Shown here: positions 1,912-62,593 of the stretch, in pieces
How positions within the stretch are numbered: the stretch's first letter is position 1
Layout: each line of letters opens with the position of its first letter
Source of the DNA: a phage
Length of the DNA stretch: 64,000 nt
Direction: 5' to 3' (one strand)
Sequence record: PZ809289.1
Position numbers and translations under genes: made by a program
Notes under the pieces: generated by a model
The model's input: the letters and a program-made list of their open reading frames with translations, nothing else
The model's database searches: none
What the model was told of the DNA's origin: nothing

Positions 1912-2577
1912 ATGTTCCATTACACTTATAAAATAACAAACAAAATTAATAATAAAATCTATATAGGTGTCCATTCAACCGAAAATTTGAATGATGCATA
2001 TTTTGGTTCCGGTAAACTCTTGAAAAGGGCCCAGGCCAAATACGGTATAGAAAATTTCTCTAAAGAAATATTAGAGTTCTTTGACGATAAAATCTCTATG
2101 TTTGAGTCAGAAAAGAATATTGTGACTGAAGAGTTTTTAAAGCGCCCCGATGTTTATAATTTGAAATTAGGCGGTGAAGGTGGTTGGGACCATTTAAACA
2201 CCGAAGAATATTTAGATAAAAAGAAAGAAGCTTCCTTAAAAGGAGTTGCTGCTTTTAAAACCAGATTTGAGAACGACCCAGACCTTAAAGAAAAATATCG
2301 TAAAATGGGTTCAGAAAGGTTTAAACAACTTTGGGATAATCCTAAGTATAGAGAGAAATTTTCAAATACTAAATCTTTCTTGGGTAAGACCCATTCAGAT
2401 GAAACCAAAAATAAAATTAAAGAATCTCACGCCAGAAATAAACACCAACAAGGTGAAAATAATTCCGGATATGGAAAAATGTGGATTCATTCTTTAGAAG
2501 AAAAAGTTTCTAAACGTATTAACAAAACGGATATTATTCCTGAAGGTTGGAATAAAGGCCGTAAAATAAAATTTTGA
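1912..2577 (+). CDS. segB: GIY-YIG family homing endonuclease (segB-like, within tRNA cluster)
   Basis: N-terminal YTYKITNKINNKIYIGVHST (GIY..YIG), basic C-terminal DNA-binding repeats; sits between two tRNA genes as T4 segB does; SD AGGAG. Confidence 0.75.
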   Translation: MFHYTYKITNKINNKIYIGVHSTENLNDAYFGSGKLLKRAQAKYGIENFSKEILEFFDDKISMFESEKNIVTEEFLKRPDVYNLKLGGEGGWDHLNTEEYLDKKKEASLKGVAAFKTRFENDPDLKEKYRKMGSERFKQLWDNPKYREKFSNTKSFLGKTHSDETKNKIKESHARNKHQQGENNSGYGKMWIHSLEEKVSKRINKTDIIPEGWNKGRKIKF

Positions 2578-2582
2578 ATTAC

Positions 2583-2657
2583 GTCCCGCTGGTGTAATGG
2601 ATAGCATACGATCCTTCTAAGTTTGCGGTCCTGGTTCGATCCCAGGGCGGGATACCA
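2583..2657 (+). tRNA. tRNA-Arg (anticodon TCT)
   Basis: Acceptor GTCCCGC/GCGGGAT with encoded CCA, anticodon loop CTTCTAA, T-arm CCTGG-TTCGATC-CCAGG. Confidence 0.8.
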
Positions 2658-2659
2658 AA

Positions 2660-3036
2660 TGAAGACTATTATATAGTCAAGCCGTCGTATGAAGACTGAT
2701 TACCAGCATTCACCGGCGCAACAAACAAGAAACCGGGTCGCTACCGGTAAGTCGTCGGACTGATGTTCCCTGAGTAAGGACTGGCATTAACAAATCTTTA
2801 CGATCTGTTAACGTCCCCTTACATCACAGCAGAAACGGCGCACCGAATTATCGATTCGAGGAAATATCTTTGCCGTAAGCCGAGTAGCGTTTTTGACGGA
2901 ACGTTCGGATATGGTCGAGATATGGCCTTTTAAAAATATTGAGTGGCGTCAACTACTTAATAACCGGGTTCGAATCCCGGCGTTTCGTACAAACACTTGC
3001 CTAGCAGGTGGAACCCCGACAAGGTTACCCTAGGTT
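2660..3036 (+). ncRNA. ORF-free structured region downstream of tRNA-Arg; candidate stable small RNAs (T4 species 1/2 RNA position)
   Basis: About 380 nt with no ORF in any frame, GC-rich paired segments, a T-arm-like CCGGG-TTCGAAT-CCCGG element, ends at a terminator. Confidence 0.3.
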
Positions 3037-3038
3037 AA

Positions 3039-3068
3039 AGGCCCTTCCGAAAGGTTGGGCCTTTTTTG
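3039..3068 (+). terminator. intrinsic terminator (hairpin plus T-run)
   Basis: GGCCCTTCC-GAAA-GGTTGGGCC followed by TTTTTT. Confidence 0.6.
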
Positions 3069-3076
3069 TATAAATA
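3069..3076 (+). promoter_or_regulatory. T4-type late promoter TATAAATA
   Basis: Exact TATAAATA about 28 nt upstream of ATG 3104. Confidence 0.45.
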
Positions 3077-3103
3077 TGTAGTTAAACTAACCTAGGAAAT
3101 AAT

Positions 3104-9973: not shown

Positions 9974-10566
9974 TGGCCCTTTATGAACCTGGATGTATGG
10001 GTATTGATACAAACTTCATCCGTCGGTCGGAAAATGCCGGAATTATTATCCCAAGTGGTGAACATATGATTATTAAAAAGTCCTGGCGAAATATCGATGA
10101 CGGTGATGAAGGAATTTCAGCCAGTACAATAGATTGGTCAGGTTGTACTGCCGAAATGAAACAGCTTTTAATTGAGGAGTTCAGAATGGGTTATATCGTA
10201 AATGGTTGGCAACCGGTAAAGAAAATCACCCGCACTGACGATAAGTATATTTGTCTCCAAGATGGAAAGGCTAAGCTCATTGATACTGAATGGCTTACGT
10301 TCGGACGATATGTTGTAGCGTATTTTATTACTTTACTTCCAATGATAGTGTTGAGTTCATTTTTAATCGACGCCAATTGGAATGATGCGCTAGAACGAAC
10401 TATTATTGGTGCGGGATTAATGAACCTTTTCACCGCTGGAGCTGCTTTAAGTATTTGGTGCTTGGCTATTGAAATGCCATGGCGTTTACGTCGTCAACAA
10501 CGTCTTTACGACGAAGGTAAAAACAAACATAATTTAAATGAGTTTATTAAGGAATGCCGTAAATGA
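9973..10566 (+). CDS. membrane protein
   Basis: TAATG overlap; hydrophobic helices; C-terminal NLNEFIKECRK. Confidence 0.55.
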   Translation: MALYEPGCMGIDTNFIRRSENAGIIIPSGEHMIIKKSWRNIDDGDEGISASTIDWSGCTAEMKQLLIEEFRMGYIVNGWQPVKKITRTDDKYICLQDGKAKLIDTEWLTFGRYVVAYFITLLPMIVLSSFLIDANWNDALERTIIGAGLMNLFTAGAALSIWCLAIEMPWRLRRQQRLYDEGKNKHNLNEFIKECRK

Positions 10567-13361: not shown

Positions 13362-13661
13362 ATGAAAACTTATCAAGAATTTATCACAGAAGCCAAAGCT
13401 CCTAAAGCATTTCAAATTGGAGTTCAAGGCAATTTAGACCAAGAATATGTTGATGCTATTGTAGCAAGCCTCGGTAAACAGGGCGTACAAGTCGATTTTG
13501 TTGATTTTACCAAAGGTAATACTTTTAATATTGTTACATCTAAAGGTTCTTTAGCTAAAGTTAAAAAGGCCTTTGGCGTAGCACAAGCATATGAAATCGA
13601 CCACTCCGAATTAGAAAATAAAGGTCGCCAGAACACAATTAGAGGTTCTGGTTCTTTCTAA
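13362..13661 (+). CDS. internal-protein-like protein with capsid targeting sequence
   Basis: Starts MKTYQEFITEA; 99 aa. Confidence 0.65.
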   Translation: MKTYQEFITEAKAPKAFQIGVQGNLDQEYVDAIVASLGKQGVQVDFVDFTKGNTFNIVTSKGSLAKVKKAFGVAQAYEIDHSELENKGRQNTIRGSGSF

Positions 13662-13765
13662 TAAAGGCAAGCCGGCCCTCTCCTCATGAACGTCTAGTCC
13701 TCTGGGTGATGAACCCAAGGATGAATTATGTGCCAAGGATTAGTCCATAACTTAAAGAGTCAAAA

Positions 13766-14125
13766 ATGAAAACATATCAGCAATTTATTACTGAATCTAC
13801 CCAACGTATTAACGAAGCTATGTCGCCTGAACAGTTGGCTAAAGCTAAAGAAGGCCTGAACCCATCTGAAGTTTTTAAAGTTACAGGTAAAGACTTTGCT
13901 TCTATGGCCACTAACCAAAGCCTGGCTAAAGAACTTAAATCTAAATCTAACTTCATTCATGCTACATGGAATGGTGATTCTCTTACTTCAATAAGTGTGT
14001 ACAATAAAAAAGGTCTCCTTAAGAGTTCTTATGGCGCGGATGCCATCCGTGTTTCTAAATCAGATTGGCATAAAAACACTACTAAAGCAGAAAAACCTCA
14101 TAACCCGGCACTAGACCATCTTTAA
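13766..14125 (+). CDS. internal-protein-like protein with capsid targeting sequence
   Basis: Starts MKTYQQFITEST; 119 aa. Confidence 0.65.
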   Translation: MKTYQQFITESTQRINEAMSPEQLAKAKEGLNPSEVFKVTGKDFASMATNQSLAKELKSKSNFIHATWNGDSLTSISVYNKKGLLKSSYGADAIRVSKSDWHKNTTKAEKPHNPALDHL

Positions 14126-14133
14126 GGCTTAAT

Positions 14134-14391
14134 ATGAAAACTTACCAAGAATTTATTACAGAATCCACTTTAGTTTCTAAACGTTGGAATATGATTGTAA
14201 ACGTTAAACCTTCCGGCACTGAAGTTTCTATGGCCGACCCTAATGATGACGAACTTGAGCACGCTTTTAGCTCTAAAGAAACTGACGAGAAAGTGGTTAA
14301 GCAACTGGTTGCTGATGCAGATCAACTTCGTAAAGTAGCAGATGTTGTTAAGCTGTTTACTAAGAAAGGTTTTAAACACGAAGAACGTTAA
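14134..14391 (+). CDS. internal-protein-like protein with capsid targeting sequence
   Basis: Starts MKTYQEFITEST; 85 aa. Confidence 0.65.
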   Translation: MKTYQEFITESTLVSKRWNMIVNVKPSGTEVSMADPNDDELEHAFSSKETDEKVVKQLVADADQLRKVADVVKLFTKKGFKHEER

Positions 14392-14540
14392 TTAGCATTT
14401 TAAATGGGAGCAACCTGGACCTCACAATTCTGTGAGGGACTCCCGCCAACCTGTAATAAGGTCGAGCCCAAGTGCGGTAATGGGTAAATGCAGAAAGGGA
14501 CGAATTAATGTGCCAAGGAACGGCCCTCAAAGGAAATACT

Positions 14541-15068
14541 ATGAAATTTTTAACCCCTATTTATCTAACCTTAATGCACGCCTTCGCTGAACGCGCCATT
14601 GAACGTTTAGACTCAGACCAATATACCTGGTATGAACCTACTTCACGAATGCAAGAGTTTGGTACTCTTCGTCTTGATGGCGGTCGACAAACGGGTAAAA
14701 CAAGTGCCATTGCGCAGTTTGCTGCGGATTGGGTTTCCAAAGGTAATGATGTGATTGTTATGTCGAGTTCTTCGCATCGCTCGCGAGAAATTTGTAATAT
14801 AATAAAACAGGTTTCTAAGGCACACCCACATCTCCAAGTCGAAGGTCCCGGTTTTGTTGTCTATGATACCGTGCGCAGTTTCCTTGATGAAGACAATTTC
14901 CATAAGTATCGTGGACTATCTGTTACTCGATTATTGATTATTATCGAAGAGCCAATGCGCCTTCCAACGATGGATAAGTTCTATGAAGCTTACCAGGTAA
15001 TGATTAATAAATTTATGTGCCAAGGCGACAAGCCTTTGCCTCTGTTCTTTGTGATAGGAATGCAATGA
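14541..15068 (+). CDS. small P-loop NTPase
   Basis: Walker A GGRQTGKTS and Walker B-like RLLIIIEEP; start uncertain (ATG 14508 or 14541). Confidence 0.45.
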   Translation: MKFLTPIYLTLMHAFAERAIERLDSDQYTWYEPTSRMQEFGTLRLDGGRQTGKTSAIAQFAADWVSKGNDVIVMSSSSHRSREICNIIKQVSKAHPHLQVEGPGFVVYDTVRSFLDEDNFHKYRGLSVTRLLIIIEEPMRLPTMDKFYEAYQVMINKFMCQGDKPLPLFFVIGMQ

Positions 15069-18115: not shown

Positions 18116-18853
18116 ATGGCAAAGGAATTCCATTATAATTACTTGACTGTAATAAAAACCCATAAGGCAAATTATTACTATGTAGGTAAACACTCCACTG
18201 ATAATCTTTCAGACGGGTATTATGGAAGTGGTACGGTAGTTAAAAATATTTGTAAAAAGCATCCTTATAAAACTCGTATATTAGAATTCTTCGAATCTGA
18301 AGAAGAGGCGTATGCCGCCGAAATTCCTTTAGTTGAAAAGGCTAAATTAAAATATGGTAAGCATTCTTTAAATTTTGCTGATGGCGGAAGAGGTAAAAAG
18401 AAAGGAACCAAATTATCTAATTTAACTAAACAGAAAATGTCTAGGTCTAGAAAAGGAGTTAAATGGAGCAAAGCCAGAATAGAAGCTTCTAAATTCACCA
18501 CTTCTAATAAAGGTTTAAACCATTATTCCAATAGAATAGGATTTAGTGATGAGCATAAAGCTAAAATAGGATTAGCCTCTAAAAAATTAAAAGGATTTAA
18601 ACATAGCGCTGAAACCATAGAAAATATGAGTAACGCCAAAAAGGGCAAAAAGAATCCCATGTACGGTAAAAAGGGCGCTATGGCAGGAAAACCTTCTCCT
18701 ATAAGAAACGAATCTTGGAAATTTTACGATGAATTAAAACTCTTATGGGAAGAATCCAATAAGCCTTCAGCATATATGTTTAAAAAGATAGCTATAAGCA
18801 AAGGTTATCCTAATTGCTCTTATAGAGGAGTTGTATTTAAATGGCAAGCTTGA
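18116..18853 (+). CDS. GIY-YIG family homing endonuclease
   Basis: N-terminal YNYLTVIKTHKANYYYVGKHST, C-terminal repeated basic K/G-rich DNA-binding modules; overlaps start of tk. Confidence 0.7.
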   Translation: MAKEFHYNYLTVIKTHKANYYYVGKHSTDNLSDGYYGSGTVVKNICKKHPYKTRILEFFESEEEAYAAEIPLVEKAKLKYGKHSLNFADGGRGKKKGTKLSNLTKQKMSRSRKGVKWSKARIEASKFTTSNKGLNHYSNRIGFSDEHKAKIGLASKKLKGFKHSAETIENMSNAKKGKKNPMYGKKGAMAGKPSPIRNESWKFYDELKLLWEESNKPSAYMFKKIAISKGYPNCSYRGVVFKWQA

Positions 18854-19413
18854 TGTTTCACTATGCGGCGATGAATTCCGGGAAAACCGCTTCATTGCTA
18901 ACGGCAGCTCATAACTACAAAGAACGTGGTATGGGCGTACTCCTTTTAAAGCCTGCGATAGACAATAGAGAATCAAGCCATAGCATTTCGTCTCGTATAG
19001 GGATTAGTCAAGAGGCTAATGCCGTGACTCCGGATATGGACCTATACGAGTTCTATCGTTGGGCTGAATCTCAAAAAGATATCCACTGTGTATTTGTGGA
19101 TGAAGCACAGTTCTTAGAACCTGCACAGATAAAACAACTGGCAAAGATAGTAGACAATTATAATGTTCCGGTTATGTGCTATGGACTAAGAACTGATTTT
19201 CAGGGTAAACTGTTTCCTGGCTCTGCTGAATTACTCGCTACAGCAGATAAACTCGTTGAGTACAAAGGTGTGTGCCATTGCGGCCGTAAAGCTACTATGA
19301 CGGCTCGTATCCAGGATGGTATCGCAATTAAGGACGGCGCCCAAGTTTCTATAGGTGGCAACGATTCTTACGTGTCATTGTGCAGGAAGCACTGGATAGA
19401 AATAACGAGTTGA
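18841..19413 (+). CDS. tk: thymidine kinase
   Basis: MASLMFHYAAMNSGKTASLL P-loop, VFVDEAQFL, CHCGRKA zinc motif; colinear with T4 Tk. Confidence 0.95.
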   Translation: MASLMFHYAAMNSGKTASLLTAAHNYKERGMGVLLLKPAIDNRESSHSISSRIGISQEANAVTPDMDLYEFYRWAESQKDIHCVFVDEAQFLEPAQIKQLAKIVDNYNVPVMCYGLRTDFQGKLFPGSAELLATADKLVEYKGVCHCGRKATMTARIQDGIAIKDGAQVSIGGNDSYVSLCRKHWIEITS

Positions 19414-22329: not shown

Positions 22330-23336
22330 GAACAGTTATGAAAGGCTACTTCGGTAGCCACCTTTATGGAACAAGTACTCCGGAATCTGACGTCGATTTT
22401 AAAGAAATCTTTGTTCCACATCCGCGTGATATTCTGTTAGGTACGGCTATGAACCATACCAACCTGAATACGAATAACACTGCTTCCAAAAACACTAAAG
22501 ATGATGTTGACCATGAGCTTTACAGCCTGAAATATTTCTTTAAACTAGCGGCTGAAGGCGAAACCGTTGCTCTGGACATGATTCATACTCCACCTGAACT
22601 GGTGGTTAAATCTGATTTACCTGATGTATGGAAATTTATCCAAGACAATCGTTCTCGGTTCTATACGACTAACATGAAAGCCTATTTAGGGTACGTCCGT
22701 AAGCAAGCTTCTAAATATGGTGTTAAGGGTTCTCGACTAGCTGCACTGCGTGGTGTACTGGCTATTGTTAACCAGATTCCTGAACAGTGGGTCGATTATC
22801 AAGAAGATGGTTCGACTAAACAACGTCGTACTAAGGTAGAAGATATTAAACATCGACTCCCTGAAAATGAGTTCTGTGAATGGGTATTCCATAACCATGA
22901 GAAAACAGGCCCTCAAACGTTCTATACTGTTCTAGGACGTAAGTACCAAACTACTTTGTCTTTAATCGAGCTCAAGCAATCTCTGAATAAGCTTGATGCT
23001 GAATATGGCGAACGTGCTCGTAAGGCTGAAGCTAATGAAGGTATTGACTGGAAAGCTCTGAGCCATGCTTATCGGGCTGGATATCAATTGTTGGAAATCT
23101 ACCAAACAGGCGACCTGGTATTCCCATTGCGCGAAGCCTCTATCATTAAGCTGATTAAGGCCGGTGAACTTCCATTTAAAGAGGTCCAAGAACTTCTTGA
23201 AGACACTGTTGATTTAGTCGAAGTACTGGCTATCCAGGCTCATAAGAACGGTATGCCTGCTAAGGTAGATATGAAGTTCTGGGACAAGTTTGTTGAAGAG
23301 GTATACCTTGACAACCACAACTCTTATTATCGATAA
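22326..23336 (+). CDS. Pol-beta-superfamily nucleotidyltransferase (cGAS/OAS/PAP-like motif)
   Basis: N-terminal GSHLYGTSTPESDVDF = G-S-x3-G-T-x4-S-D-h-D-h, later DDVDHE; 336 aa; ATGA overlap. Confidence 0.6.
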   Translation: MRTVMKGYFGSHLYGTSTPESDVDFKEIFVPHPRDILLGTAMNHTNLNTNNTASKNTKDDVDHELYSLKYFFKLAAEGETVALDMIHTPPELVVKSDLPDVWKFIQDNRSRFYTTNMKAYLGYVRKQASKYGVKGSRLAALRGVLAIVNQIPEQWVDYQEDGSTKQRRTKVEDIKHRLPENEFCEWVFHNHEKTGPQTFYTVLGRKYQTTLSLIELKQSLNKLDAEYGERARKAEANEGIDWKALSHAYRAGYQLLEIYQTGDLVFPLREASIIKLIKAGELPFKEVQELLEDTVDLVEVLAIQAHKNGMPAKVDMKFWDKFVEEVYLDNHNSYYR

Positions 23337-23343
23337 CGAAGAA

Positions 23344-34668: not shown

Positions 34669-34669
34669 T

Positions 34670-40587: not shown

Positions 40588-41165
40588 TGTATATATGTTA
40601 TCATAATACGATAACCAACACTAAAACCAAGTGTGTCTATCATTATTTTGGTAGACACCGTGTTACTGCTGAAGAATACTACGGTACAGGTAAGTTTGTT
40701 AAGAAATGCAAACGAGAAAATGCTATTACTCCAGGTCTTTGGGAGTTTTGTGTTGAAGTTATCCATACAGTGGATACGTTTAAAGAAGCCAAGATTATTG
40801 AAGAAGAGCTTGTTAAAGAAGGCATATCAAAATATGGTATCCTTTGTGTTAATAAGAATCCTGGTGGTGATGGCGGTGTGGATTACCACACCGAAGAATC
40901 TAAACGTAAAATGTCAGAAACTAGAACAGGAAAATCAAGAATATTTTCCGAAAGTCATAAAGAAAATTTAAGTAAACGAGCCAGAAAATACTCTGATGTT
41001 TGGTCCGAACCTGTATATTCAAATCTTAAAACCATTTGGCTGGAAACAGGTATGTTAAAACGCGGACGGTTTAGTACGCTTTTACAAAAATATGGGTATA
41101 ATTATTCTGCGAATGAATTGAATAAAATTGTTAAACATTTTAATGAGGAAAATAATAATGAGTAA
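40587..41165 (+). CDS. GIY-YIG-like homing endonuclease inserted between genes 45 and 44
   Basis: N-terminal YICYHNTITNTKTKCVYHYFGRH, YYGTGKF and GGDGG motifs shared with the segB-like protein; T4 has no gene here. Confidence 0.6.
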   Translation: MYICYHNTITNTKTKCVYHYFGRHRVTAEEYYGTGKFVKKCKRENAITPGLWEFCVEVIHTVDTFKEAKIIEEELVKEGISKYGILCVNKNPGGDGGVDYHTEESKRKMSETRTGKSRIFSESHKENLSKRARKYSDVWSEPVYSNLKTIWLETGMLKRGRFSTLLQKYGYNYSANELNKIVKHFNEENNNE

Positions 41166-42135
41166 AGTAGTAAATGGTTTAACTATTAATGAAAACGACT
41201 TCATGTGGGAACAGAAATATCGTCCAGGTACTTTATCTGAGTGTATTCTGCCTGCTCATGATAAAGAAACCCTCCAAGCCATTGTTAATAAGGGCCTAAT
41301 CCCTAACATTATCCTAGTCTCTGCTTCACCAGGCACAGGTAAAACTACCGTAGCTAAAGCATTGTGTGCTGATACAAATTCAGATATGCTTTTTGTTAAC
41401 GGTTCCGACTGCCGTATTGATTTCGTTCGTAATGAACTTACTCGTTTTGCATCTTCCAAATCTATCGAAGGTAAACGTAAGGTAATTGTTATCGACGAAT
41501 TCGACCGTGCTGGTGTTGCTGAAGCTCAACGTCACCTTCGTTCGTTCTTAGAAGCCTATTCCTCAAACTGTTCTGTAATTATTACAGCAAACAATATTGA
41601 TGGTATTATCGGCCCACTTCAATCCCGTTGTCGCGTTATTAAATTTGGTGAAGCCACTCCAGCTGACCAAACATCCATGATGAAAGAAATGATTCATCGT
41701 GCTGTAGCGATCTGTAAAAACGAAAATATCGAAGTCGAAGACCTTAAAGTTATTGCTGCTTTAGTTAAACAAAACTTTCCTGATTTCCGTAAAACAGTTA
41801 ACCAACTGGACCGTTACTCATCCAGTGGTAAAATCGATACAGGCATTTTGAGTATTGTAATGAATACCAATTCGCCTATCGATGAAGTAGTGGCTGCACT
41901 TAAAGATAAAAACTTTAAAGAACTCCGTGCATTAGCTCCACGCCATGTCAATGACTATTCCAACTTTATTATGACGCTGGCTAACGAACTCTATGGTAAA
42001 TTGCCTGGGCCAAGCATTGTTAGAATGTATGAAATTGTCGGTGAAAATAACCAATACCACGGTATTGCGGCTAACCCAGAAATTCACATGACTTATCTGT
42101 TCATCCAACTTGCTCTGGAGCTCCAATGGCTATAA
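41158..42135 (+). CDS. 44: clamp loader large subunit gp44
   Basis: WEQKYRPGTL, Walker A SPGTGKTT, DEFDR, SRC motif; ATG 41158. Confidence 0.95.
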   Translation: MSKVVNGLTINENDFMWEQKYRPGTLSECILPAHDKETLQAIVNKGLIPNIILVSASPGTGKTTVAKALCADTNSDMLFVNGSDCRIDFVRNELTRFASSKSIEGKRKVIVIDEFDRAGVAEAQRHLRSFLEAYSSNCSVIITANNIDGIIGPLQSRCRVIKFGEATPADQTSMMKEMIHRAVAICKNENIEVEDLKVIAALVKQNFPDFRKTVNQLDRYSSSGKIDTGILSIVMNTNSPIDEVVAALKDKNFKELRALAPRHVNDYSNFIMTLANELYGKLPGPSIVRMYEIVGENNQYHGIAANPEIHMTYLFIQLALELQWL

Positions 42136-42698
42136 GTCTTTTTGATGATGACGTTGAACTGAACGAACATGAAGTTGCTTGGAAATCACGTAACGACGCT
42201 GCAATTCAAGCCTTGGCCGATTCATTTAAAGAAAAGGCTGAAAACGAACTGTTCGCCATTATGAACGATATCACATATGGTAAGAACCAACGTAACTTGG
42301 CTCAGTCGGAAAACTACAATCAATTTTGGCTCGATAATAGTTTGAGCCAACATGTGGATTGTATTATGCAGGCTGCAATGGTTAACTGTCTGAAACTTGA
42401 TGACCAAAGTCATTTCAACTATCTTTTACACGCTGTTCCTAAGGGTAAGAGGTTTGGTAAATGGGCTAAGGCCCATGATGATGAAGTTAGTGTAGTTTTT
42501 ATTACTCGTTTATTGATGAAATACCATTCAATTAATAATGATGACGCTTATCGTTATCTCGAGACTTATAAAATTAAAGGCCATCTTCCTGCAGTGCTTA
42601 AGAAGATGAAAGGGTTGGTTACGGACGAATTCCTGAAATCCGTAACTAAAAATGTTAAAGAACAAAAAGACTTGAAAAAGAAAGCATTGGAATGGTAA
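42126..42698 (+). CDS. 62: clamp loader small subunit gp62
   Basis: 187-190 aa, colinear with T4 gp62 (KEQKDLKKKALEW C-terminus). Confidence 0.85.
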   Translation: MAISLFDDDVELNEHEVAWKSRNDAAIQALADSFKEKAENELFAIMNDITYGKNQRNLAQSENYNQFWLDNSLSQHVDCIMQAAMVNCLKLDDQSHFNYLLHAVPKGKRFGKWAKAHDDEVSVVFITRLLMKYHSINNDDAYRYLETYKIKGHLPAVLKKMKGLVTDEFLKSVTKNVKEQKDLKKKALEW

Positions 42699-42704
42699 AT
42701 TAAA

Positions 42705-43067
42705 ATGATTGAAATTACTCTGAAACAACCTGAAGACTTCTTGAAAGTTAAAGAGACCCTAACTCGTATGGGTATCGCTAATAATAAAGAAAAGAAACTA
42801 TATCAATCCTGCCACATTCTGCAAAAGCAAGGGCTGTATTATATCGTCCACTTTAAAGAGATGTTACGTATGGATGGCCGCCAAGTTGATATCGATGGTG
42901 AAGACTACCAACGTCGTGATTCAATTGCCCAGCTTCTTAAGGAGTGGGGACTGATTGATATAGTAGACGACTCTGAGCTGTTCGAAATCACTAATAATTT
43001 CCGTGTCATTTCCTTTAAGCAGAAAAATGACTGGGAACTACTGTCTAAGTATACCATTGGTAATTAA
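42705..43067 (+). CDS. regA: translational repressor RegA
   Basis: MIEITLKQPEDFLKVKETLTRMGIANNK...NNFRVISFKQK, near-identical pattern to T4 RegA. Confidence 0.95.
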   Translation: MIEITLKQPEDFLKVKETLTRMGIANNKEKKLYQSCHILQKQGLYYIVHFKEMLRMDGRQVDIDGEDYQRRDSIAQLLKEWGLIDIVDDSELFEITNNFRVISFKQKNDWELLSKYTIGN

Positions 43068-43068
43068 T

Positions 43069-43284
43069 ATGATTCTTGAAATTGAAACGTGTGAACGTCT
43101 TAAAGAGGTATACGGACTTTCTCCAACTCAAACGATTTTTGACCTTTCCGAAGAGCTCCAAATAGAATTTCAAAAGGACCTCCAAAAGTTACTACATCCT
43201 GGCCAGCAAGTCTTCCAGGCTATGATTAAAACTAAAGACGAAGATGGTAATTCAACTATTAAACGTCAGACAATAGAAATTTAA
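43069..43284 (+). CDS. hypothetical protein
   Basis: ATG 43069 right after regA stop; 71 aa. Confidence 0.45.
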   Translation: MILEIETCERLKEVYGLSPTQTIFDLSEELQIEFQKDLQKLLHPGQQVFQAMIKTKDEDGNSTIKRQTIEI

Positions 43285-43287
43285 GCA

Positions 43288-43309
43288 AAGGGACTTCGGT
43301 CCCTTTTGG
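43288..43309 (+). terminator. terminator/attenuator hairpin
   Basis: AAGGGAC-TTCG-GTCCCTT followed by TTTT. Confidence 0.5.
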
Positions 43310-43365
43310 AGTATAATGATTCATCAACAAACAAAAGACAATCACTCGTCTATAAAGGAAATGAA

Positions 43366-46077
43366 ATGCAAGAATTCTATTTGACAGTCGAACAAATCGG
43401 TGATAATATTCTCGAACGTTACATCGATAAAAATGGTAACGAACGTAGTCGTGAAGTTCCTTACAAGCCTACAATGTTTATGCATGCTAATCCAGAGCAA
43501 GCCGTAAAATACATTGATATCTATGGTAAGGGTTGTGTTAAGAAAGAATTCGATTCTATGCGTGATGCATCCCAATGGATGAAACGTATGGATGATATGG
43601 GTCTCGAAGCCCTGGGTATGGACGACTATAAATTAGCCTATTTGTCTGATACCTATCGTAAAGAAATCAGATATGATTCTTCTAAGATTCGTATTGCTAA
43701 CTTCGACATCGAGGTAACATCTCCTGATGGATTCCCTGAACCAGCTCAGGCTAAACATCCTATCGATGCCATTACCCACTACGACTCGATTGACGATAAA
43801 TTCTATGTATTCGACCTTTTAGTTTCGCCTTATGGTACTGTCGAAGAGTGGTCGATTAAAATCGCTGAGAAACTCCAAGACGAAGGCGGTGACGAAGTTC
43901 CACAAGAAATCATTGACAAAATCGTTTATCTTCCGTTTAATTCTGAAGAAGAAATGATGCTTGAGTACTTGAATTTCTGGCAACAGAAAACTCCTGTGAT
44001 TTTGACTGGATGGAACGTTGAGTCGTTTGACGTACCATACGTTTATAACCGTCTGAAAAATCTGTTCGGTGAGAACACTGCTAAGCGATTAAGCCCACAT
44101 CGTAAAACTCGTGTTAAAGTTATCGAGAACATGTACGGTGCTCGTGAAATCATTACATTGTTCGGTATCTCTGTTCTGGATTATATCGACCTGTATAAAA
44201 AATTCAGCTTTACCAACCAGCCTTCTTATTCTCTGGATTATGTTTCTGAATATGAATTGAAAGTAGGTAAGTTGAAATATGATGGCCCAATCTCCAAGTT
44301 ACGTGAGACGAACCACCAACGATATATTTCCTATAACATTATCGACGTATATCGTGTAGTGCAGATTGATATGAAGCGTCAGTTCATTCTTCTGAGTTTG
44401 GACATGGGTTATTATGCCAAGATGCAGATTCAGTCGGTGTTCAGCCCAATTAAGACTTGGGACGCTATTATCTTTAATAGCCTTAAAGAACAAGGCAAGG
44501 TAATTCCACAAGCTCGTTCGCACGTGGTCCAACCTTATCCTGGTGCTTTCGTTAAGGAACCGATTCCTAACGCTTACAAATATGTAATGAGTTTCGACCT
44601 TACATCTCTGTACCCGAGTATCATTAGACAAGTGAATATAAGCCCAGAGACCATCGCAGGGACATTCGCTAACGCACCGATACATGAATATATTGCCGGA
44701 ACAGCTCCGCGTCCTAGCGACACCTACAGTTGCTCTCCTAACGGCATGATGTATTATAAAGACCGTGAAGGTGTGATTCCGACAGAAATCACAAAGGTAT
44801 TCTTGCAGCGTAAAGAACATAAAGGTTACATGCTTGCAGCTCAACGTAATGGCGAGTTAATTAAAGAAGCATTGGAAAATCCTAATCTCTCAGTTGATAG
44901 TCCACTGGATATCGATTATCGTTTTGACTTCTCTGACGAAATCAAAGCCCAGATTAAAGCACTGTCAGCGCCTTCTTTAAGAGAAATGTTGAAGAAAGCC
45001 GAGCTCACTGAAGTTGCAGGTAACACTGCTCAGATTAACCGTAAGTTGCTTATCAACTCCCTTTATGGTGCACTTGGTAACGTATGGTTCCGTTACTATG
45101 ACCTCAGGAACGCAACTGCAATCACATTGTTTGGTCAAATGGCCCTCCAATGGATTGAACGTAAGGTTAACGAATATCTGAATAGCGTGTGTAAGACTGA
45201 AAACCAGAAGTTCGTGCTCTACGGTGATACTGACTCCATTTATGTTAAGGCAGATGCAATCATCAATAAAGTAGGCGAAGATAAATTCCGTGATACTAAC
45301 CACTGGGTCGACTTCTTAGATAAATTTGCACGTGAACGTATGGAACCAGCTATTGATGCAGGCTTCCGTGAGATGTGTGAGTACATGAACAACAAACAGC
45401 ACTTGATGTTCATGGACCGAGAAGCTATCGCAGGTCCTCCACTTGGTTCTAAAGGCCTTGGTGGATTCTGGACAGGCAAGAAACGTTATGCACTTAACGT
45501 TTGGGACATGGAAGGTACTCGTTATGCTGAACCACACTTGAAAATCATGGGTCTCGAAACTCAGAAATCAAGTACACCTAAAGCAGTTCAGAAAGCTCTG
45601 AAGGAATGTATCCGTCGTATGCTTCAGGAAGGCGAGGCATCTTTGCAAGAATATTTCAAACAGTTTAATAAGGAATTTAACGAACTCGATTATGTAAGCA
45701 TTGCAGCAGTATCCAGTGCTAACAACATCGAGAAATATAATGAAGGTGGATTCCCGGGTTCTAAATGTCCATACCACATCAAAGGTTGCTTAGCTTACAT
45801 GCGTGCTTCTGCAGGTGATTTGACTATGCCTCGCATCGTTGATGGTGAAAAGGTATATGTACTGCCACTTAAAGAAGGCAACCCGTTTGGTGAAGCTTGT
45901 ATGGCATGGCCGTCAGGTATTGAACTTCCGGTTCAGATTCGTGACCAAGTCCTCCGTTGGATGGACTACAACGTACTGTTCCAAAAGACCTTTATCAAAC
46001 CTCTGACCGGTTTTACTGAGTCTGCTAAAATCGACTACGAGAAAAAAGCAACATTATTTGATATGTTCGACTTTTAA
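43366..46077 (+). CDS. 43: DNA polymerase gp43 (family B, T4/RB69-type)
   Basis: Exo motifs FDIEV..., YGDTDS polymerase motif, KKRY; N-terminus MQEFYLTVEQIGD; ATG 43366 after AAGGAA. Confidence 0.97.
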   Translation: MQEFYLTVEQIGDNILERYIDKNGNERSREVPYKPTMFMHANPEQAVKYIDIYGKGCVKKEFDSMRDASQWMKRMDDMGLEALGMDDYKLAYLSDTYRKEIRYDSSKIRIANFDIEVTSPDGFPEPAQAKHPIDAITHYDSIDDKFYVFDLLVSPYGTVEEWSIKIAEKLQDEGGDEVPQEIIDKIVYLPFNSEEEMMLEYLNFWQQKTPVILTGWNVESFDVPYVYNRLKNLFGENTAKRLSPHRKTRVKVIENMYGAREIITLFGISVLDYIDLYKKFSFTNQPSYSLDYVSEYELKVGKLKYDGPISKLRETNHQRYISYNIIDVYRVVQIDMKRQFILLSLDMGYYAKMQIQSVFSPIKTWDAIIFNSLKEQGKVIPQARSHVVQPYPGAFVKEPIPNAYKYVMSFDLTSLYPSIIRQVNISPETIAGTFANAPIHEYIAGTAPRPSDTYSCSPNGMMYYKDREGVIPTEITKVFLQRKEHKGYMLAAQRNGELIKEALENPNLSVDSPLDIDYRFDFSDEIKAQIKALSAPSLREMLKKAELTEVAGNTAQINRKLLINSLYGALGNVWFRYYDLRNATAITLFGQMALQWIERKVNEYLNSVCKTENQKFVLYGDTDSIYVKADAIINKVGEDKFRDTNHWVDFLDKFARERMEPAIDAGFREMCEYMNNKQHLMFMDREAIAGPPLGSKGLGGFWTGKKRYALNVWDMEGTRYAEPHLKIMGLETQKSSTPKAVQKALKECIRRMLQEGEASLQEYFKQFNKEFNELDYVSIAAVSSANNIEKYNEGGFPGSKCPYHIKGCLAYMRASAGDLTMPRIVDGEKVYVLPLKEGNPFGEACMAWPSGIELPVQIRDQVLRWMDYNVLFQKTFIKPLTGFTESAKIDYEKKATLFDMFDF

Positions 46078-57734: not shown

Positions 57735-58256
57735 ATGGCACACTTTAACGAATGCTCACAACTTATTGCTGGTGTTGATAAAGCTGAGGAAGCTTATTTT
57801 AATGCTCTGATTCACGAAGATAAAGACCCTCTGCAGGTTATGCTTGATATGCAGAAATCATTACAAGTCCGTTTGGCTAAAGATAAACCTGAATATAACC
57901 GTCATCCTGATGACTTGGCTACTGCAGGTGAAGTTGTTGATTGGTTGCGCAATCAGAAAGATTATATTGATGATGAATTCCGCGAACTTCTGACTTCTCT
58001 TGGTGGCATGAGCAATGGCGAAAAAGATGCGAGCGCTGTATGGAAGCCTTGGAAAGCTCAACATGCTGAACGTCGTGAAACCCTGATTAACGATTTGTCT
58101 CCTGAAGACCAGCTCGAAATTAAATTCGAAATGATTGATATTCTGCACTTTGTTCTGAATATGTTCCAAGGTCTTGGACTGACTGCTGAAGAAATCTTTA
58201 AACTGTATTACCTGAAAAATGCCGAGAACTTTGCTCGCCAGGACCGAGGTTATTAA
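57735..58256 (+). CDS. 56: dCTPase gp56-like (all-alpha NTP pyrophosphatase)
   Basis: 173 aa; synteny between 61 and soc; acidic helical sequence as expected for the MazG-like fold. Confidence 0.6.
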   Translation: MAHFNECSQLIAGVDKAEEAYFNALIHEDKDPLQVMLDMQKSLQVRLAKDKPEYNRHPDDLATAGEVVDWLRNQKDYIDDEFRELLTSLGGMSNGEKDASAVWKPWKAQHAERRETLINDLSPEDQLEIKFEMIDILHFVLNMFQGLGLTAEEIFKLYYLKNAENFARQDRGY

Positions 58257-58258
58257 GT

Positions 58259-58266
58259 TATAAATA
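58259..58266 (+). promoter_or_regulatory. late promoter TATAAATA upstream of soc
   Basis: Exact TATAAATA about 30 nt upstream of soc ATG. Confidence 0.6.
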
Positions 58267-58297
58267 CACCTGTAATTAAACAACAAAGGAGTTAATT

Positions 58298-58531
58298 ATG
58301 GGTGGTTTCGTTAATATCAAAACCTTTACGCATCCGGCTGGTGAAGGTAAAGAAGTTAAAGGTGTTGAAGTATCTGTCCCGTTTGAAATCTATTCAAACG
58401 AGCATCGTATTGCGAATGCACACTATCAGACATTTCCTTCTGAAAAGGCGGCATACACTACTGTAGTAACTGATGCAGCCGATTGGCGAACTAAGAACGC
58501 GGCGATGTTTACGCCTACCCCAGTAGTTTAA
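58298..58531 (+). CDS. soc: small outer capsid protein Soc
   Basis: VNIKTF...HYQTFPSEKAAYTTV matches T4 Soc; late promoter upstream. Confidence 0.85.
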   Translation: MGGFVNIKTFTHPAGEGKEVKGVEVSVPFEIYSNEHRIANAHYQTFPSEKAAYTTVVTDAADWRTKNAAMFTPTPVV

Positions 58532-58537
58532 TTATAA

Positions 58538-58561
58538 GGAACCTTCGGGTTCCTTTTTTGG
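58538..58561 (+). terminator. intrinsic terminator (same hairpin as 23531)
   Basis: AGGAACC-TTCG-GGTTCCT followed by TTTTTT. Confidence 0.65.
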
Positions 58562-58625
58562 TTTTAAGGGTTTACTTTCTAAGAAGGTTATGTTAAGATG
58601 GTCTTATCTTATAGAGGAGAATGCT

Positions 58626-58835
58626 ATGTTAAATCGTTGGATTAAACCAAATAAAACTTTAGATGAAATTATCGCTAACCACGTATTGAAAAAGTACTTT
58701 TATACGCCTTGGTATACCGAAGTTATTGTCCATTCATTTATGATGCATGAAGACGGTTCTATCGAATTTAATGCCGAAATCCGTCACGAGACTGATGATA
58801 TTGATAAAGTTGAATTTAAACGAGGTTTCCTATGA
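58626..58835 (+). CDS. hypothetical protein
   Basis: ATG 58626 after GGAGAATGCT. Confidence 0.45.
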   Translation: MLNRWIKPNKTLDEIIANHVLKKYFYTPWYTEVIVHSFMMHEDGSIEFNAEIRHETDDIDKVEFKRGFL

Positions 58836-59155
58836 TTCGTTGGCTTAAGAATTTTTTCAAGACCAAACCTGGTGAAGGGGTGGTTCCTATCTCAGGTCTG
58901 AAGGAATATGTTTATGTGGGCGATGGTATGATGGAAGAAGTTATCCGTCAACCTGAAAAAGCCGGTAATGTAGGCCCGGGTGCCCTTCCTTTGAATTCTA
59001 AAAAGTTTAAAGAGCATCTAGAAGCTCGTCGCACAAGCCATATTGATACTACTCCTATTATGGTTGCGGCTGCTGTCAGTTCTTGGACTGGTGATTCTTC
59101 TTATTCGTCTTATGACTCAGGAAGCTGTGACTCATCGTCCGGCTCGTGTGATTAA
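58832..59155 (+). CDS. hypothetical protein with Ser/Cys-rich C-terminal tail
   Basis: ATGA overlap; tail SSWTGDSSYSSYDSGSCDSSSGSCD. Confidence 0.5.
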   Translation: MIRWLKNFFKTKPGEGVVPISGLKEYVYVGDGMMEEVIRQPEKAGNVGPGALPLNSKKFKEHLEARRTSHIDTTPIMVAAAVSSWTGDSSYSSYDSGSCDSSSGSCD

Positions 59156-59355
59156 TGAAACCTTTATCATGGCTTAAAGATTGGCTGGACCGTCCTGGTG
59201 ATTATCTTGATGACGGGTGGTTGGACCAAGCTAATGCAGAAATGAAACGCGAGTCCGAAGAATGGATTCTTAAAGGTATCCGTGAAGAACGCGAAAAGAA
59301 ATTAGAACGCGAAGCTCTTAGAATTATGCGTGACATCTATGGGGATAAATCATGA
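59155..59355 (+). CDS. hypothetical protein
   Basis: TAATG overlap; 66 aa. Confidence 0.45.
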
Positions 59356-59519
59356 CTACTGAAGAGGCCGAAAAACAAGCTAAAGAGGCACTGGATTTGC
59401 TTCTTAAAATTGGTAGTAAAATGATGGAAGAAAACGAGAAATACATCCAAGAAAATAAAATTCCGGATGGTCCTTTAGTAGGTAAACTAAAAAGAGGAAA
59501 ACATAATGAAAGTCTATGA
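59352..59519 (+). CDS. small protein (55 aa)
   Basis: Not in track; ATGA overlap with preceding stop. Confidence 0.3.
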
Positions 59520-59994
59520 ACTCGAATTCTTTGTTCGTGATTCTGCCGGACAAACGCGACCTTATGATGCTACAGTGGGTCTTATCTTTGTCGACAATGG
59601 TACGAATTCTATAACCCAGCTAGAAACACGATTAAAAGATATTAAGCCACCAGAAAATATTCTAATGAAGGCATATCATAATAAAAATGTTGATGTTGCT
59701 GAGGGTTGTCCTTTTAGCCTGGCTGAAGCATTACATATCAAGGGTTATCGCCATCCGGACCCGTATGGCGAAGGAACAATGGACATTTTCTATAAAGATA
59801 CCGATAGAATGTCCAACGAACGTCTTAAAGGTCGTACTTATCTGATTTCCGCTACCGAAGGCCTTATTGAAGTTGAACGTCAGATTTGGAAGCACTTTGA
59901 TATTGGATTGCGCTTTACCATGACTGAAGACGCTATTCGTGATGCTAAGGCGAGAGCTCGTATGTATGGCTATGGTCCTATCGGTGGTTACTAA
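59506..59994 (+). CDS. hypothetical protein
   Basis: SD AAGAGGAAA; 162 aa. Confidence 0.55.
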
Positions 59995-60182
59995 TGGACT
60001 TGTTTGATATGTTTGTCATTCCGGACCCTGAGCCTGAAACAACTCAGGAGCCGCCTGTTGACCTTGTCAACGAACTTGATATGATTATACAGAAGCACGG
60101 TTTTAAGTTGCCTAAAGAGGTCCTTAGTGACCTTGCTTCTTATTACTTAGACCCTCCACCTTGGGCTCCTTGGGTAAAATAA
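59994..60182 (+). CDS. small acidic protein
   Basis: TAATG overlap. Confidence 0.4.
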   Translation: MDLFDMFVIPDPEPETTQEPPVDLVNELDMIIQKHGFKLPKEVLSDLASYYLDPPPWAPWVK

Positions 60183-60415
60183 TGAATTGGCTAACTAATA
60201 TACCTACATCGGCGTTGGATATCGACCGTAAACAGGCTCGTAATGAAATCGAGCAAAAAAATATTCAGGCGAAAGCCCCTAAGATTGAAGCTGAGAAGCC
60301 AGAAACAAAAAGCTCGTATGAATCAAAAAGCTCCTATACTTCATATACCCAATCCTCATTAGGCATGGCTGCTGACATTGCAGTGTTTGGCGTCCCACTT
60401 GGTGTGTTTAAGTAG
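60181..60415 (+). CDS. hypothetical protein
   Basis: ATG 60181 overlapping preceding stop; C-terminal hydrophobic segment. Confidence 0.4.
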
Positions 60416-60467
60416 TTTACACCTCCTCCCTTCATGTTATAATGACCTCTAAATCGCTGGAGGTCAT

Positions 60468-61037
60468 ATGAACATCGAACAAAAATGTCTTTATCAAGAC
60501 CGAATCAATTCCAAATTTTCAAAATCTGAACAAGCCTTGTTAGAGAAATGTCTGGATGCCAAAAAAGACCCTAACTTCCATTACGACCTTGACAAACTGG
60601 TTCGTAAGCATGTTACTTCGGCCGTTCCTGTAGAGCTTTATCGCGGGATTACCGCCAGAGAACTTGAGCAATTAGAGCTCCTTTCAGTAGGATGTCAATG
60701 GTCTCCTGGTCGAGTTACTTCTTTTAGTACACAATACTCTCAGGCTCGTCAGTTTGCAGGGGCATGGGAATATGGAACCAAAACCATTTTAAGTCTCAGG
60801 AATGCACCGTTCATTTTCGACTACTACAATCATGCTATCGACCTTGTTCTTGCTGGGAATGTAGACGCCCTTGAAATTGATGAAACTCGTATTGATCTCT
60901 ATGATATGGTCGAAACTGAATGTGAGTTCATGGTCTCTAGCCAATCGCGATTTGAGATTGTTGCAATCGAAACCGTCAAAAGAGACCCATATGAAATCGA
61001 GTACAAAACAATTCATTTAAAAATGTTGGATTTTTAG
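60468..61037 (+). CDS. ADP-ribosyltransferase (ModA/ModB family)
   Basis: R-S-EXE triad: LYRG, SFSTQ, ECEF; 189 aa; SD GGAGG. Confidence 0.75.
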   Translation: MNIEQKCLYQDRINSKFSKSEQALLEKCLDAKKDPNFHYDLDKLVRKHVTSAVPVELYRGITARELEQLELLSVGCQWSPGRVTSFSTQYSQARQFAGAWEYGTKTILSLRNAPFIFDYYNHAIDLVLAGNVDALEIDETRIDLYDMVETECEFMVSSQSRFEIVAIETVKRDPYEIEYKTIHLKMLDF

Positions 61038-61091
61038 TTTACAGGCAAGGAAGCTTGTGGTACTATCTTTCTATCAACTGAGGAGAATAAT

Positions 61092-61706
61092 ATGTTATAT
61101 CCGAGCCATAAATTAGCAGAATTTATCAACAATGCCAAATGCGATGATTTCCGTGAGAATACTCAGATAGAAATTGATGAAGTGTATTCTGATTTAGAAC
61201 AGAGTACCCTCTGGCAGTGCATGGAAAATAAACCAGATTGTATCCAGGAAACTCTGAACAAAATCATCCGTAAGAACCTGACTTCTGTAGTGCCTGATAA
61301 GCTCTATCGCGGCATATCTAAAAAGACTATGAAGTATCTAGAGTCCACAATGTGTGTAGGTGCGGTAATTGAATTCGACCGCGTGATGAGCTTCTCTAAA
61401 GACTTCAACGTGGCAAGGAATTTCGCATCTTATAACTTCTACGGCACATTTAATATCTTTTGTATTAATGATGCACCATTTGTGTACAATTATCAGGAAG
61501 AAATCTTTAAAATGTTATGTGCTGCGCCCCCTGAAGAGTTCCCAGGAGCATTTCCTGAATCTACCCGTGTAGCAAACTTACAATTAATCAATGATGAAGA
61601 TGAGATGATGTTCCCTGCGGGAACTACGCTGCGCGTAGACTCTATTGAGAGAAATCCTAAATGGAATAATTACACCATTTGGAATCTTTCCGTTCTTTCT
61701 TACTGA
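61092..61706 (+). CDS. ADP-ribosyltransferase (ModA/ModB family), second copy
   Basis: LYRG, SFSKDF, EDEMMF; 204 aa; SD GAGGAG. Confidence 0.75.
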   Translation: MLYPSHKLAEFINNAKCDDFRENTQIEIDEVYSDLEQSTLWQCMENKPDCIQETLNKIIRKNLTSVVPDKLYRGISKKTMKYLESTMCVGAVIEFDRVMSFSKDFNVARNFASYNFYGTFNIFCINDAPFVYNYQEEIFKMLCAAPPEEFPGAFPESTRVANLQLINDEDEMMFPAGTTLRVDSIERNPKWNNYTIWNLSVLSY

Positions 61707-61774
61707 ACCACCCGGTTTAATTGAAAGGCAAAGTCCTTGATTCATTATACCGTCGAAAATTTAAAGCAAAAAGT

Positions 61775-61803
61775 GTTTACTTTACCGAGCAACATGATAC
61801 TAT
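61775..61803 (+). promoter_or_regulatory. early promoter cassette
   Basis: GTTTAC 61775-61780, TACTAT 61798-61803, AGACCTATCAG. Confidence 0.6.
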
Positions 61804-61843
61804 AGACCTATCAGCTAATCGTCCGTAAGATGAGAAAAATATT

Positions 61844-62593
61844 ATGCCTACTATTAAAACTAACGATGAATTTGAGTTAAAGGTTTACAAACGTCGCGAA
61901 CACACTAAAGCCTCTGCCAAAAAACGTGGTAAGGACTTTAACCTGTCTAGTAAGTACGTTCGTAGACTTCTTGAACAAAAAGTGTGTGCATATTCAGGCG
62001 AGCGCTTTGATGAGAATTCAGATAAAGATAAGATTTCGTTTGAACGCTTTAACAACGATATAGGTTATATCGAAGGTAATGTAATCCCGGTTAAAGTTAA
62101 GTACAACGGGTTGCGAGCTGATTTGTCTTTAGATGAATTGAAACGTGCACAGACTCGTTTAGCGTCCCGTATTTCAGGTGGTTCTAAAATGCCTAATAGT
62201 TTTAAAGTTACCCCAGATAATTATTATAAAATTCGTAAAATAGTTAAAAATATTAAAGATACCCAAAGAGGTCTTAAAAAGCGTGAAAAACGTCTTAAGG
62301 ACCTTATTAAATCAGGAGCCACTGATAATACCCCTTCTGTCATCGCGGTTAAGGCCCGTATCCATGGTTCTAACGCTTCAATAGGTACTATGGAAAAGGG
62401 TCTTAAATCTTTAATTGGTGGGCCTGATTGGCGTGTCAAGTTTAAATTGTCTGAAGCAGAAACGCGTTACGATATGTATGATAAAATTATTCAAGGTCTG
62501 GAGCGTTTAGAACACCTTTCTTTTATTGACAAAATGAAGTTGAAAAAAGGTCTTCCGCTGAATGCTTCAATTTTTTCACTGATTAGAGGTTAA
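61844..62593 (+). CDS. HNH-like (Mob-type) homing endonuclease-related protein
   Basis: CAYSG...ISFERFNNDIGYIEGNV resembles the HNH core with His positions substituted; basic C-terminus. Confidence 0.4.
   Translation: MPTIKTNDEFELKVYKRREHTKASAKKRGKDFNLSSKYVRRLLEQKVCAYSGERFDENSDKDKISFERFNNDIGYIEGNVIPVKVKYNGLRADLSLDELKRAQTRLASRISGGSKMPNSFKVTPDNYYKIRKIVKNIKDTQRGLKKREKRLKDLIKSGATDNTPSVIAVKARIHGSNASIGTMEKGLKSLIGGPDWRVKFKLSEAETRYDMYDKIIQGLERLEHLSFIDKMKLKKGLPLNASIFSLIRG

Follow-up and report, generated by a model that had tools for sequence, protein, structure and literature searches.

The closest described relatives of the genes considered here are the seg genes of phage T4, which are typically intergenic and oriented in the same direction as their neighbours, and which are sometimes kept through carrying expression signals for neighbouring genes (PMC2988022). 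Seven of the twelve freestanding endonuclease genes of T4 are promoterless cassettes that ride on host transcripts (PMC2988022). SegB is an experimentally proven homing endonuclease, and inheritance of its gene approaches 100% in T4 x T2L crosses; the site that it prefers, with the core GGTTCRANTCC followed on the 3' side by CCAR, is located within the tRNA-Asn gene in phages without segB (T2L, RB1, and RB3) (PMC2330249). SegB also drives segmental amplification of tRNA and anti-defence genes (PMC13096335). In this study, we analyzed a 64,000-nucleotide (nt) stretch of phage DNA from record PZ809289.1, referred to as the window, in which five open reading frames (ORFs) had been proposed to be freestanding homing-endonuclease genes (HEGs) wedged between conserved core genes. 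We put at roughly 85% the probability that the window is a Dhakavirus segment with four freestanding Seg-type GIY-YIG HEGs, the remaining ORF being srd, an ordinary early gene that is not mobile.

All five ORFs of the original prediction were found on the + strand at exactly the coordinates it gave, and they are designated O1 to O5 (221, 245, 205, 192, and 249 amino acids, respectively); position numbers are those of the whole window. The claim of five homing endonucleases held for O1–O4, which are of the Seg-type GIY-YIG kind, and failed for O5, which matches the Srd family PHROG 1400 with an E-value of 7e-93. The four genes represent a known kind of element, as O1 is the known SegB and O2–O4 are uncharacterised members at new sites. 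O2–O4 share the N-terminal Seg-type GIY-YIG domain of the T4 SegA–SegG family (SegF at gene 56, SegG at gene 32). Like the T4 genes, they are intergenic among conserved genes of replication and nucleotide metabolism, oriented as their neighbours, sporadic in occurrence, and accompanied by flanks that appear co-converted. In contrast to T4, their sites (the tk start, 47.1/47, and 45/44) are not among the twelve freestanding sites of that phage, and in the case of O2 and O4 the insert overlaps an essential downstream gene, whose first codons and ribosome-binding site it re-encodes.

Megablast of the window regions against 50,697 phage records, the collection to which all counts of matching records below refer, assigned the window to the JS98 group of T-even phages, genus Dhakavirus. 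The best-matching genome depends on the region (IME540 with 98.9% at O2, QL01 with 99.8% at O3, Bp7 with 98.9% at O4, and WG01 with 99.7% at O5), and no one genome in these records matches the window throughout. The window is thus a mosaic whose nearest relative switches from site to site.

Family membership and distribution of O1–O4

That four of the ORFs are of GIY-YIG type was confirmed by Pfam directly for O1, which scored 24.4 bits against PF01541 (GIY-YIG) with a family cutoff of 22.6, and by profile and transitive homology for O2–O4. PHROG 314, 'homing endonuclease', was matched in one common region by O1 to O4 (E-values of 8e-48, 2e-27, 3e-16, and 9e-17, respectively), and BLASTP connects O1 with O2 (3e-12), O2 with O4 (3e-7), and O2 with O3 (7e-5). 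When a small profile of O4 homologs was compared with SegB (O1) using hhalign, 157 columns were aligned with 77% probability and an E-value of 2e-5. In the alignment of O1–O4, two Tyr motifs, a Y-x-G-[ST]-G motif (Y-H-G-S in O3), one Glu, and one Asn all line up, and the aligned Asn is followed by G-G in O1, O2, and O4, but not in O3. These motif residues (the Tyr pair, YxG, Glu, and Asn-x-x-GG) are invariant among O4 homologs that are 60%–80% identical overall.

Further domains differ among the four proteins. Two NUMOD3 motifs were detected in O2 (E-value of 3.9e-13), while O1 scored 19.1 against a cutoff of 20.4, O4 gave a weak score of 17.0, and none was found in O3. A C-terminal IP[ED]GW.KG motif is common to O3 and SegB, and O2 is about 29% identical to T4 SegA. 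The top PHROG of O3 is 10820, labelled 'HNH endonuclease'; as the O3 sequence is GIY-YIG-like, this label is probably a misannotation. An additional NCBIfam match was obtained only for O1, to a group I intron endonuclease and below threshold, and PDB sequence searches with O1 found nothing.

Comparison of the insertion sites with related genomes, the check that accompanied the original prediction, separated the ORFs clearly, as O1–O4 are missing at the same sites in close relatives and O5 is present at its site in T4, JS98, and WG01. JS98 contains none of O1–O4, and WG01 and T4 are without O2, O3, and O4. No database genome carries all four together; IME540 comes closest with O1–O3 and lacks O4. 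O2–O4 are each full-length in 4–10 of about 62 comparable Dhakavirus records, presence and absence of O1–O4 alternate at identical sites among genomes that are 92%–99% identical, and the distribution of the four genes across phage records is patchy and independent of one another. The empty sites hold intact alternatives (gene 47.1, tRNA-Asn, or normal spacers) and not deletion scars. Fidelity to the site extends across genera, because homologs of O2 adjoin tk in Klebsiella and Citrobacter phages (53%–60% identity) and homologs of O3 adjoin gene 47 in Klebsiella phages (57%–67% identity). A map of insertions and deletions between the window and JS98 has five gaps of at least 600 nt, and all but one of these correspond to the endonuclease loci of O1–O4. 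A tblastn search of the window with O1–O4 found no further copies.

Insertion sites and flanking tracts

O1 (1912–2577, + strand), which carries a GIY-YIG domain and a NUMOD3-like region just below the cutoff, is orthologous to T4 segB. Compared with the annotated SegB of PP01, a T4-like phage, its identity is 90% in amino acids and about 91% in DNA; because of this identity, the T4 slot that it occupies, and the experimental proof for SegB, O1 is already known biology in a new host genus. Its flanks are a tRNA gene with anticodon CAT called by ARAGORN (1800–1870, + strand) on the left and tRNA-Arg(TCT) (2583–2657, + strand) on the right, and the same two tRNA genes flank segB in T4. The predicted location between tRNA-Ile and tRNA-Arg is therefore correct in T4 naming; ARAGORN names 1800–1870 Met(CAT), whereas the T4 table names the equivalent gene tRNA-Ile. 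An Rfam scan gave two tRNAs only, and PP01, a T4-like phage, has eight tRNA genes here compared with only two in the window, a Dhakavirus.

The O1 region is full-length in five records, which represent four distinct Dhakaviruses. JS98 has tRNA-Met, tRNA-Asn, and tRNA-Arg in a row, segB occupies the place of tRNA-Asn, and relative to JS98, window positions 1871–2721 replace both tRNA-Asn and tRNA-Arg. The empty site, the tRNA-Asn gene of JS98, holds GGTTCGAATCC...CCAA, and its sequence GGTTCGAATCCATGCATGTCCGCCAAA fits GGTTCRANTCC...CCAR. If the 27-bp site starts at GGTTC, the JS98 gene would have all five preferred-site bases (G6, A16, G18, A26, and A27). The tRNA(CAT) gene at 1800–1870 also contains the SegB core motif GGTTCGATTCC at 1849.

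The segB tract lies in a T4-like patch (1798–3082, + strand) that was delimited by identity to PP01. The window is 91% identical to PP01 DNA over 1798–2583 and 94% over 2722–3082, while adjoining homologous genes reach only 69%–81% and the tRNA-Arg stretch at 2583–2721 has no PP01 match. Because the patch stands at 91%–94% to Tequatrovirus (PP01) against 69%–81% for its flanks, the segB cassette was probably imported recently from a T4-like phage, that is, by transfer between genera.

The tRNA-Arg(TCT) at 2583–2657 is also present next to segB in LHE83 and IME540. It is unrelated in sequence to the tRNA-Arg genes of JS98 and PP01, which resemble each other, and therefore two different tRNA-Arg genes alternate at this locus. 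The non-coding region that follows (2722–3082) is 94% identical to PP01 and only 81% identical to JS98. A 144-nt piece within it (2848–2991) is present in the window, LHE83, and PP01, and is missing in JS98 and IME540; at 2967, it carries a tRNA-like arm, GGTTCGAATCC, in agreement with the core motif of SegB. ARAGORN and Rfam called no gene at 2722–3082, which is possibly the region of the T4 stable RNA species.

O3 (35438–36055, + strand), identified by PHROG 314 and synteny, stands in place of gene 47.1 of WG01, JS98, and T4. Its overlap with the start of gene 47 was predicted correctly, the last 14 nt of O3 lying over the true start at 36042. Of 109 matching records, 10 contain the whole O3 region, and relatives at about 60% identity are found in many T4-like phages. 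An unusually clean trace of putative homing adjoins this gene. The window and WG01 are 100% identical over 34500–35400 and 36350–39500, and between these blocks the first 282 nt of gene 47 (36042–36323, + strand) form a divergent allele in the comparison with WG01, with 52 substitutions over 40 differing codons, of which 32 are synonymous and 8 are non-synonymous. Across five genomes with O3, including the window, and four without it, this 5' allele follows the presence of the gene, as it is 93%–100% identical in the four other O3-carrying genomes and 82%–83% identical in the four O3-less genomes; over the following 320 nt of gene 47, the same genomes show no such split. We suggest that the patch is a co-conversion tract left by double-strand-break repair. 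Because the divergent allele is confined to nucleotides 1–282 of gene 47 and is linked to O3, this segment is also the probable location of the O3 target.

The O3 site varies in other genomes. In LQ5, KIT01, SHP1, and 005, it contains a longer, different insert (a span of ~2250 nt compared with 2001, with 78%–82% of the query covered), and phage 005 has an O3 variant that is 84% identical; the gene 47 start motif was sought in LQ5 and was not found. A second allele of the O3 cassette seems to exist. Upstream of O3 in the window, a GC-rich hairpin with a T-run (GGAGCTTAGGCTCC TTTTTT) lies at 35389–35408, over the stop of the a-gt.2 homolog and 30 nt before O3. The hairpin is identical in WG01, and divergence between the window and WG01 begins just downstream, at ~35419. 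If the hairpin terminates transcription, O3 would need its own promoter; the exact late-promoter motif TATAAATA was not found upstream of O3.

O2 (18116–18853, + strand) was identified from PHROG 314, NUMOD3, and its junctions, and combines a GIY-YIG-like N-terminal domain with the two NUMOD3 motifs. It was rightly placed upstream of and overlapping tk, the thymidine kinase ORF (18841–19413, + strand), as its stop overlaps the tk start at 18841. O2 takes the original ribosome-binding site of tk together with ATGGC, and its last codons give tk a new GAGGAG site and a new ATG, so that the N-terminus of the kinase is altered from MAQLY to MASLM and the pentamer ATGGC occurs on both sides of the insert. 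Only 4 of 526 matching records contain the O2 region at full length. Upstream of O2, about 170 nt stand at 84%–90% identity compared with a baseline of 98%. This flank tract is shorter than that of O3 and, together with the rewritten tk codons, may be regarded as a co-conversion feature.

O4 (40587–41165, + strand) is a rare seg-like gene that was identified by PHROG 314, hhalign, and its junctions. It lies between genes 45 and 44, where T4 has no gene, as had been proposed; the spacer is just 50 nt in T4 and 61 nt in JS98 and QL01, and it is replaced by O4 in the window. The O4 ATG overlaps the gene 45 stop (TAATG), and its 3' end carries the GAGG ribosome-binding site of gene 44, the clamp loader ORF (41158–42135, + strand), and overlaps the gene 44 start. 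As a result of the insert, the gp44 N-terminus is altered from MLTVNNNEFMWEQ to MSKVVNGLTINENDFMWEQ. Among 204 matching records, 9 contain the O4 region in full. The protein itself occurs in 26 phage records, in all of which it is annotated as hypothetical and nowhere as an endonuclease, and it has 4 relatives among 5.8 billion proteins. Identity to WG01 drops from 100% to 96%–97% over roughly 39500–43500 around O4; besides this broader drop, the O4 flanks show rewritten junctions only.

These features are consistent with the homing cycle shown for T4 SegB. In a mixed infection, each endonuclease would cut the HEG-less allele of a related phage in or near the neighbouring conserved gene. SegB would probably target a tRNA T-psi-C arm and O3 the first ~300 nt of gene 47; O2 would probably act at the tk start region, and O4 at the 45/44 junction or the 5' end of gene 44. 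The break would be mended by recombination from the endonuclease-carrying genome, and repair would copy the endonuclease gene along with its flanks, which differ at the target and would thereby protect the carrier. O1–O4 are oriented as their neighbours and are coupled to them through overlapping stop and start codons. By carrying the ribosome-binding site and first codons of an essential downstream gene, O2 and O4 may also discourage their own loss.

Several points weigh against this interpretation. O2–O4 fall below the PF01541 cutoff (E-values of 0.72 and 0.056, and no match, respectively), which leaves their GIY-YIG assignment to profile and transitive homology. The catalytic Arg (equivalent to R27 of I-TevI) was not confidently placed in the O1–O4 alignment, and hhalign found no significant alignment between the O4 family and I-TevI. 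The O4 allele of phage 005 covers only 83% of O4 (residues 1–160), and some O4 copies may be decaying; any endonuclease copy in the window could be inactive. Among the genes considered here, cleavage and homing have been shown experimentally only for T4 SegB, and O2–O4 are putative homing endonucleases. The target positions given for O2 and O4 are guesses, because the divergent flanks there are short. Moreover, a sporadic distribution alone could also stem from repeated deletion.

Taken together, these points could be read to mean that O2–O4 are inactive, decaying remnants or domesticated DNA-binding proteins, and that their patchiness reflects ancient insertion followed by repeated deletion with no ongoing homing. 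The sub-cutoff Pfam scores and the shortened 005 allele would fit this explanation, as would the observation that many seg and mob genes of T4 have never been shown to be active (PMC2988022, Table 1). Nevertheless, we consider it unlikely. The motif residues have stayed invariant in O4 homologs that otherwise retain 60%–80% identity, and each gene has a near-identical copy in another Dhakavirus genome (100% for O2, 99% for O3, and 100% for O4). The window is a mosaic whose closest relative differs by site (IME540, QL01, Bp7, or WG01), intact alternative sequence occupies the empty sites, and recent exchange is indicated by the 282-nt patch of gene 47, which has sharp bounds, contains mostly synonymous changes, and lies in a background of 100% identity. 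Repeated deletion as the sole cause of the patchiness was rejected in view of the intact alternatives and of the bounded patch linked to O3. O2–O4 thus appear, on the evidence of their sequences and sites, to be genuine Seg-type freestanding HEGs.

O5 and the HNH-like domain of Srd

T4 Srd, formerly described as a 'putative anti-sigma factor', associates with the N-terminal half of RNase E and stimulates the decay of host mRNA, according to the part of PMC13232886 in which Qi et al. (2015) is cited. O5 (61844–62593, + strand) is a full-length homolog of this protein in an identical gene order. In addition to its match to PHROG 1400, it shares 50% identity with T4 Srd from end to end (E-value of 4e-75). 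The ORF had been placed between a modB-like gene and dda, but its immediate neighbours are modA and dda.1, and the order modA-srd-dda.1-dda is common to the window, T4, and the two Dhakavirus genomes inspected (JS98 and WG01). Family, homology to T4 Srd, and synteny together indicate that O5 is srd, a conserved early gene, and not a homing endonuclease.

The proposal that all five ORFs are freestanding HEGs, with O5 as an HNH-type (mob-like) element, drew on the HNH-like scaffold of the protein and is, in our view, highly improbable. The best family of O5 is Srd, with identity to the T4 protein along its whole length; it takes the same position in T4, JS98, and WG01; the alignment of the window with JS98 continues unbroken across the gene; and 62 of 85 matching records contain the region at full length, without the sporadic presence seen at the other four sites. 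Universal presence at the same site is the pattern that the original prediction itself had named as speaking against mobility. The protein family has an invariant Arg at the position of the catalytic His, and it has lost three of the four Cys positions that serve as zinc ligands.

The scaffold itself was perceived correctly. An HNH-like framework without the usual His residues is supported in agreement by the alignment of homologs, by the profile alignment, and by the fold search with the N-terminal domain, and the caution that the protein may be inactive or a variant was well judged, given Arg68 in place of the catalytic His and the loss of most zinc ligands. Across 16 Srd homologs, the invariant residues are C48-A-Y-S ... 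E67-R68 ... N71 ... G74-Y75 ... G78-N79-V-I ... Y87-N88. The best sequence match of an N-domain profile in the PDB was 4h9d, an HNH endonuclease, with a marginal E-value of 0.062; in this alignment, the catalytic His is paired with Arg68 and the second Cys of the CxxC with Ser51. Among the four zinc-ligand Cys positions, Cys48 alone is kept, and the C-terminal CxxC is lost. Pfam scans of O5 and of the N-domain alone detected nothing, nor did a PDB sequence search with O5.

In the predicted model of Srd, residues 1–112 form a degenerate HNH (beta-beta-alpha) domain and residues 120–249 form helical hairpins. A fold search with the N-domain of this model gave interpretable HNH matches, whereas the full-length model was swamped by coiled-coil and helical-bundle matches to the C-terminal half. 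When compared with HNH (beta-beta-alpha-Me) nucleases, namely PacI, the Gme HNH nicking endonuclease 4h9d, McrA, Hpy99I, and the HNH domain of Cas9, Srd has Arg68 in place of His, Ser in place of the second Cys of CxxC, and no C-terminal CxxC, and only the Asn residues are kept. The N-domain is therefore predicted to be an HNH-fold relic without the catalytic histidine.

This module does not appear to be restricted to Srd. A search of 1.84 billion proteins with the Srd profile returned 6,692 matches at E ≤ 1e-3, and many of the top-listed matches are small proteins that cover the N-domain only (aligned to 61844–62180). All ten of the N-domain relatives inspected keep the pattern C-x-Y-[ST]-G ... 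[DE]-R-x-D ... G-Y-x-x-[GS]-N ... N, with His replaced by Arg, so that Arg68 is invariant in the 16 Srd homologs and in ten distant N-domain relatives. No Pfam domains were detected in ten scanned relatives, a largely different set from the ten inspected. With the invariant Arg and the lost zinc ligands, we see roughly even chances that Srd is an exapted, catalytically dead HNH domain drawn from a very large phage-associated family. If this is true, the HNH-like module with its His-to-Arg change would serve widely to bind nucleic acid or protein in a non-nuclease (or unconventional) role, and could account for the way in which Srd engages RNase E or the RNA substrates of RNase E. A search of the available papers for a link between Srd and HNH domains found nothing relevant, which is not proof of novelty.

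Other variable regions and biological meaning

Other differences between the window and its relatives occur away from O1–O4. The remaining large block that is absent from JS98 (13716–15038) contains internal-protein-like genes and no endonucleases. Three successive small ORFs at 13362–14391 (99, 119, and 85 amino acids) each start with MKTYQEFITE or MKTYQQFITE, and we take these starts to resemble the capsid-targeting leader of T4 internal proteins. The block is a hypervariable internal-protein cassette with no counterpart in JS98 and is not an endonuclease locus. Smaller gaps relative to JS98 lie at 2848–2991, 10217–10521, 23331–23557, and 33071–33302; the only one of these that was inspected, 10217–10521, falls within an ORF of 197 amino acids. 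Identity between the window and WG01 falls to 88%–93% at 58000–60500, on the modA.2-modB side, from a background of 97%–100%. This is another exchanged or fast-evolving patch, with no endonuclease gene nearby in the window.

Other Dhakavirus genomes carry seg-like genes that lie outside the window or are missing from it, such as those adjoining uvsY in IME08, IME281, and FB. ABTNLS3 and FB also have a seg-like gene at ~37–39 kb, and Bp7 encodes a paralog of the O3 N-domain. The endonuclease complement thus varies between Dhakavirus genomes.

The cleanest new leads from this analysis are the putative co-conversion tract at O3 and gene 47 and the predicted dead-HNH architecture of Srd. The former is unusually clean and confines the probable target to a 282-nt segment of gene 47, an Mre11-like gene, which would ease the mapping of the cleavage site, and the latter offers a structural starting point for the activation of RNase E by Srd. 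More broadly, the window ties three uncharacterised seg lineages to specific essential genes (tk, gene 47, and gene 44/45). O2 and O4 may become hard to lose, as they re-encode the site at which translation of the next gene begins. If O2–O4 are the homing genes that they appear to be, selfish genes drive mosaicism among otherwise near-identical coliphages of the therapeutic type.

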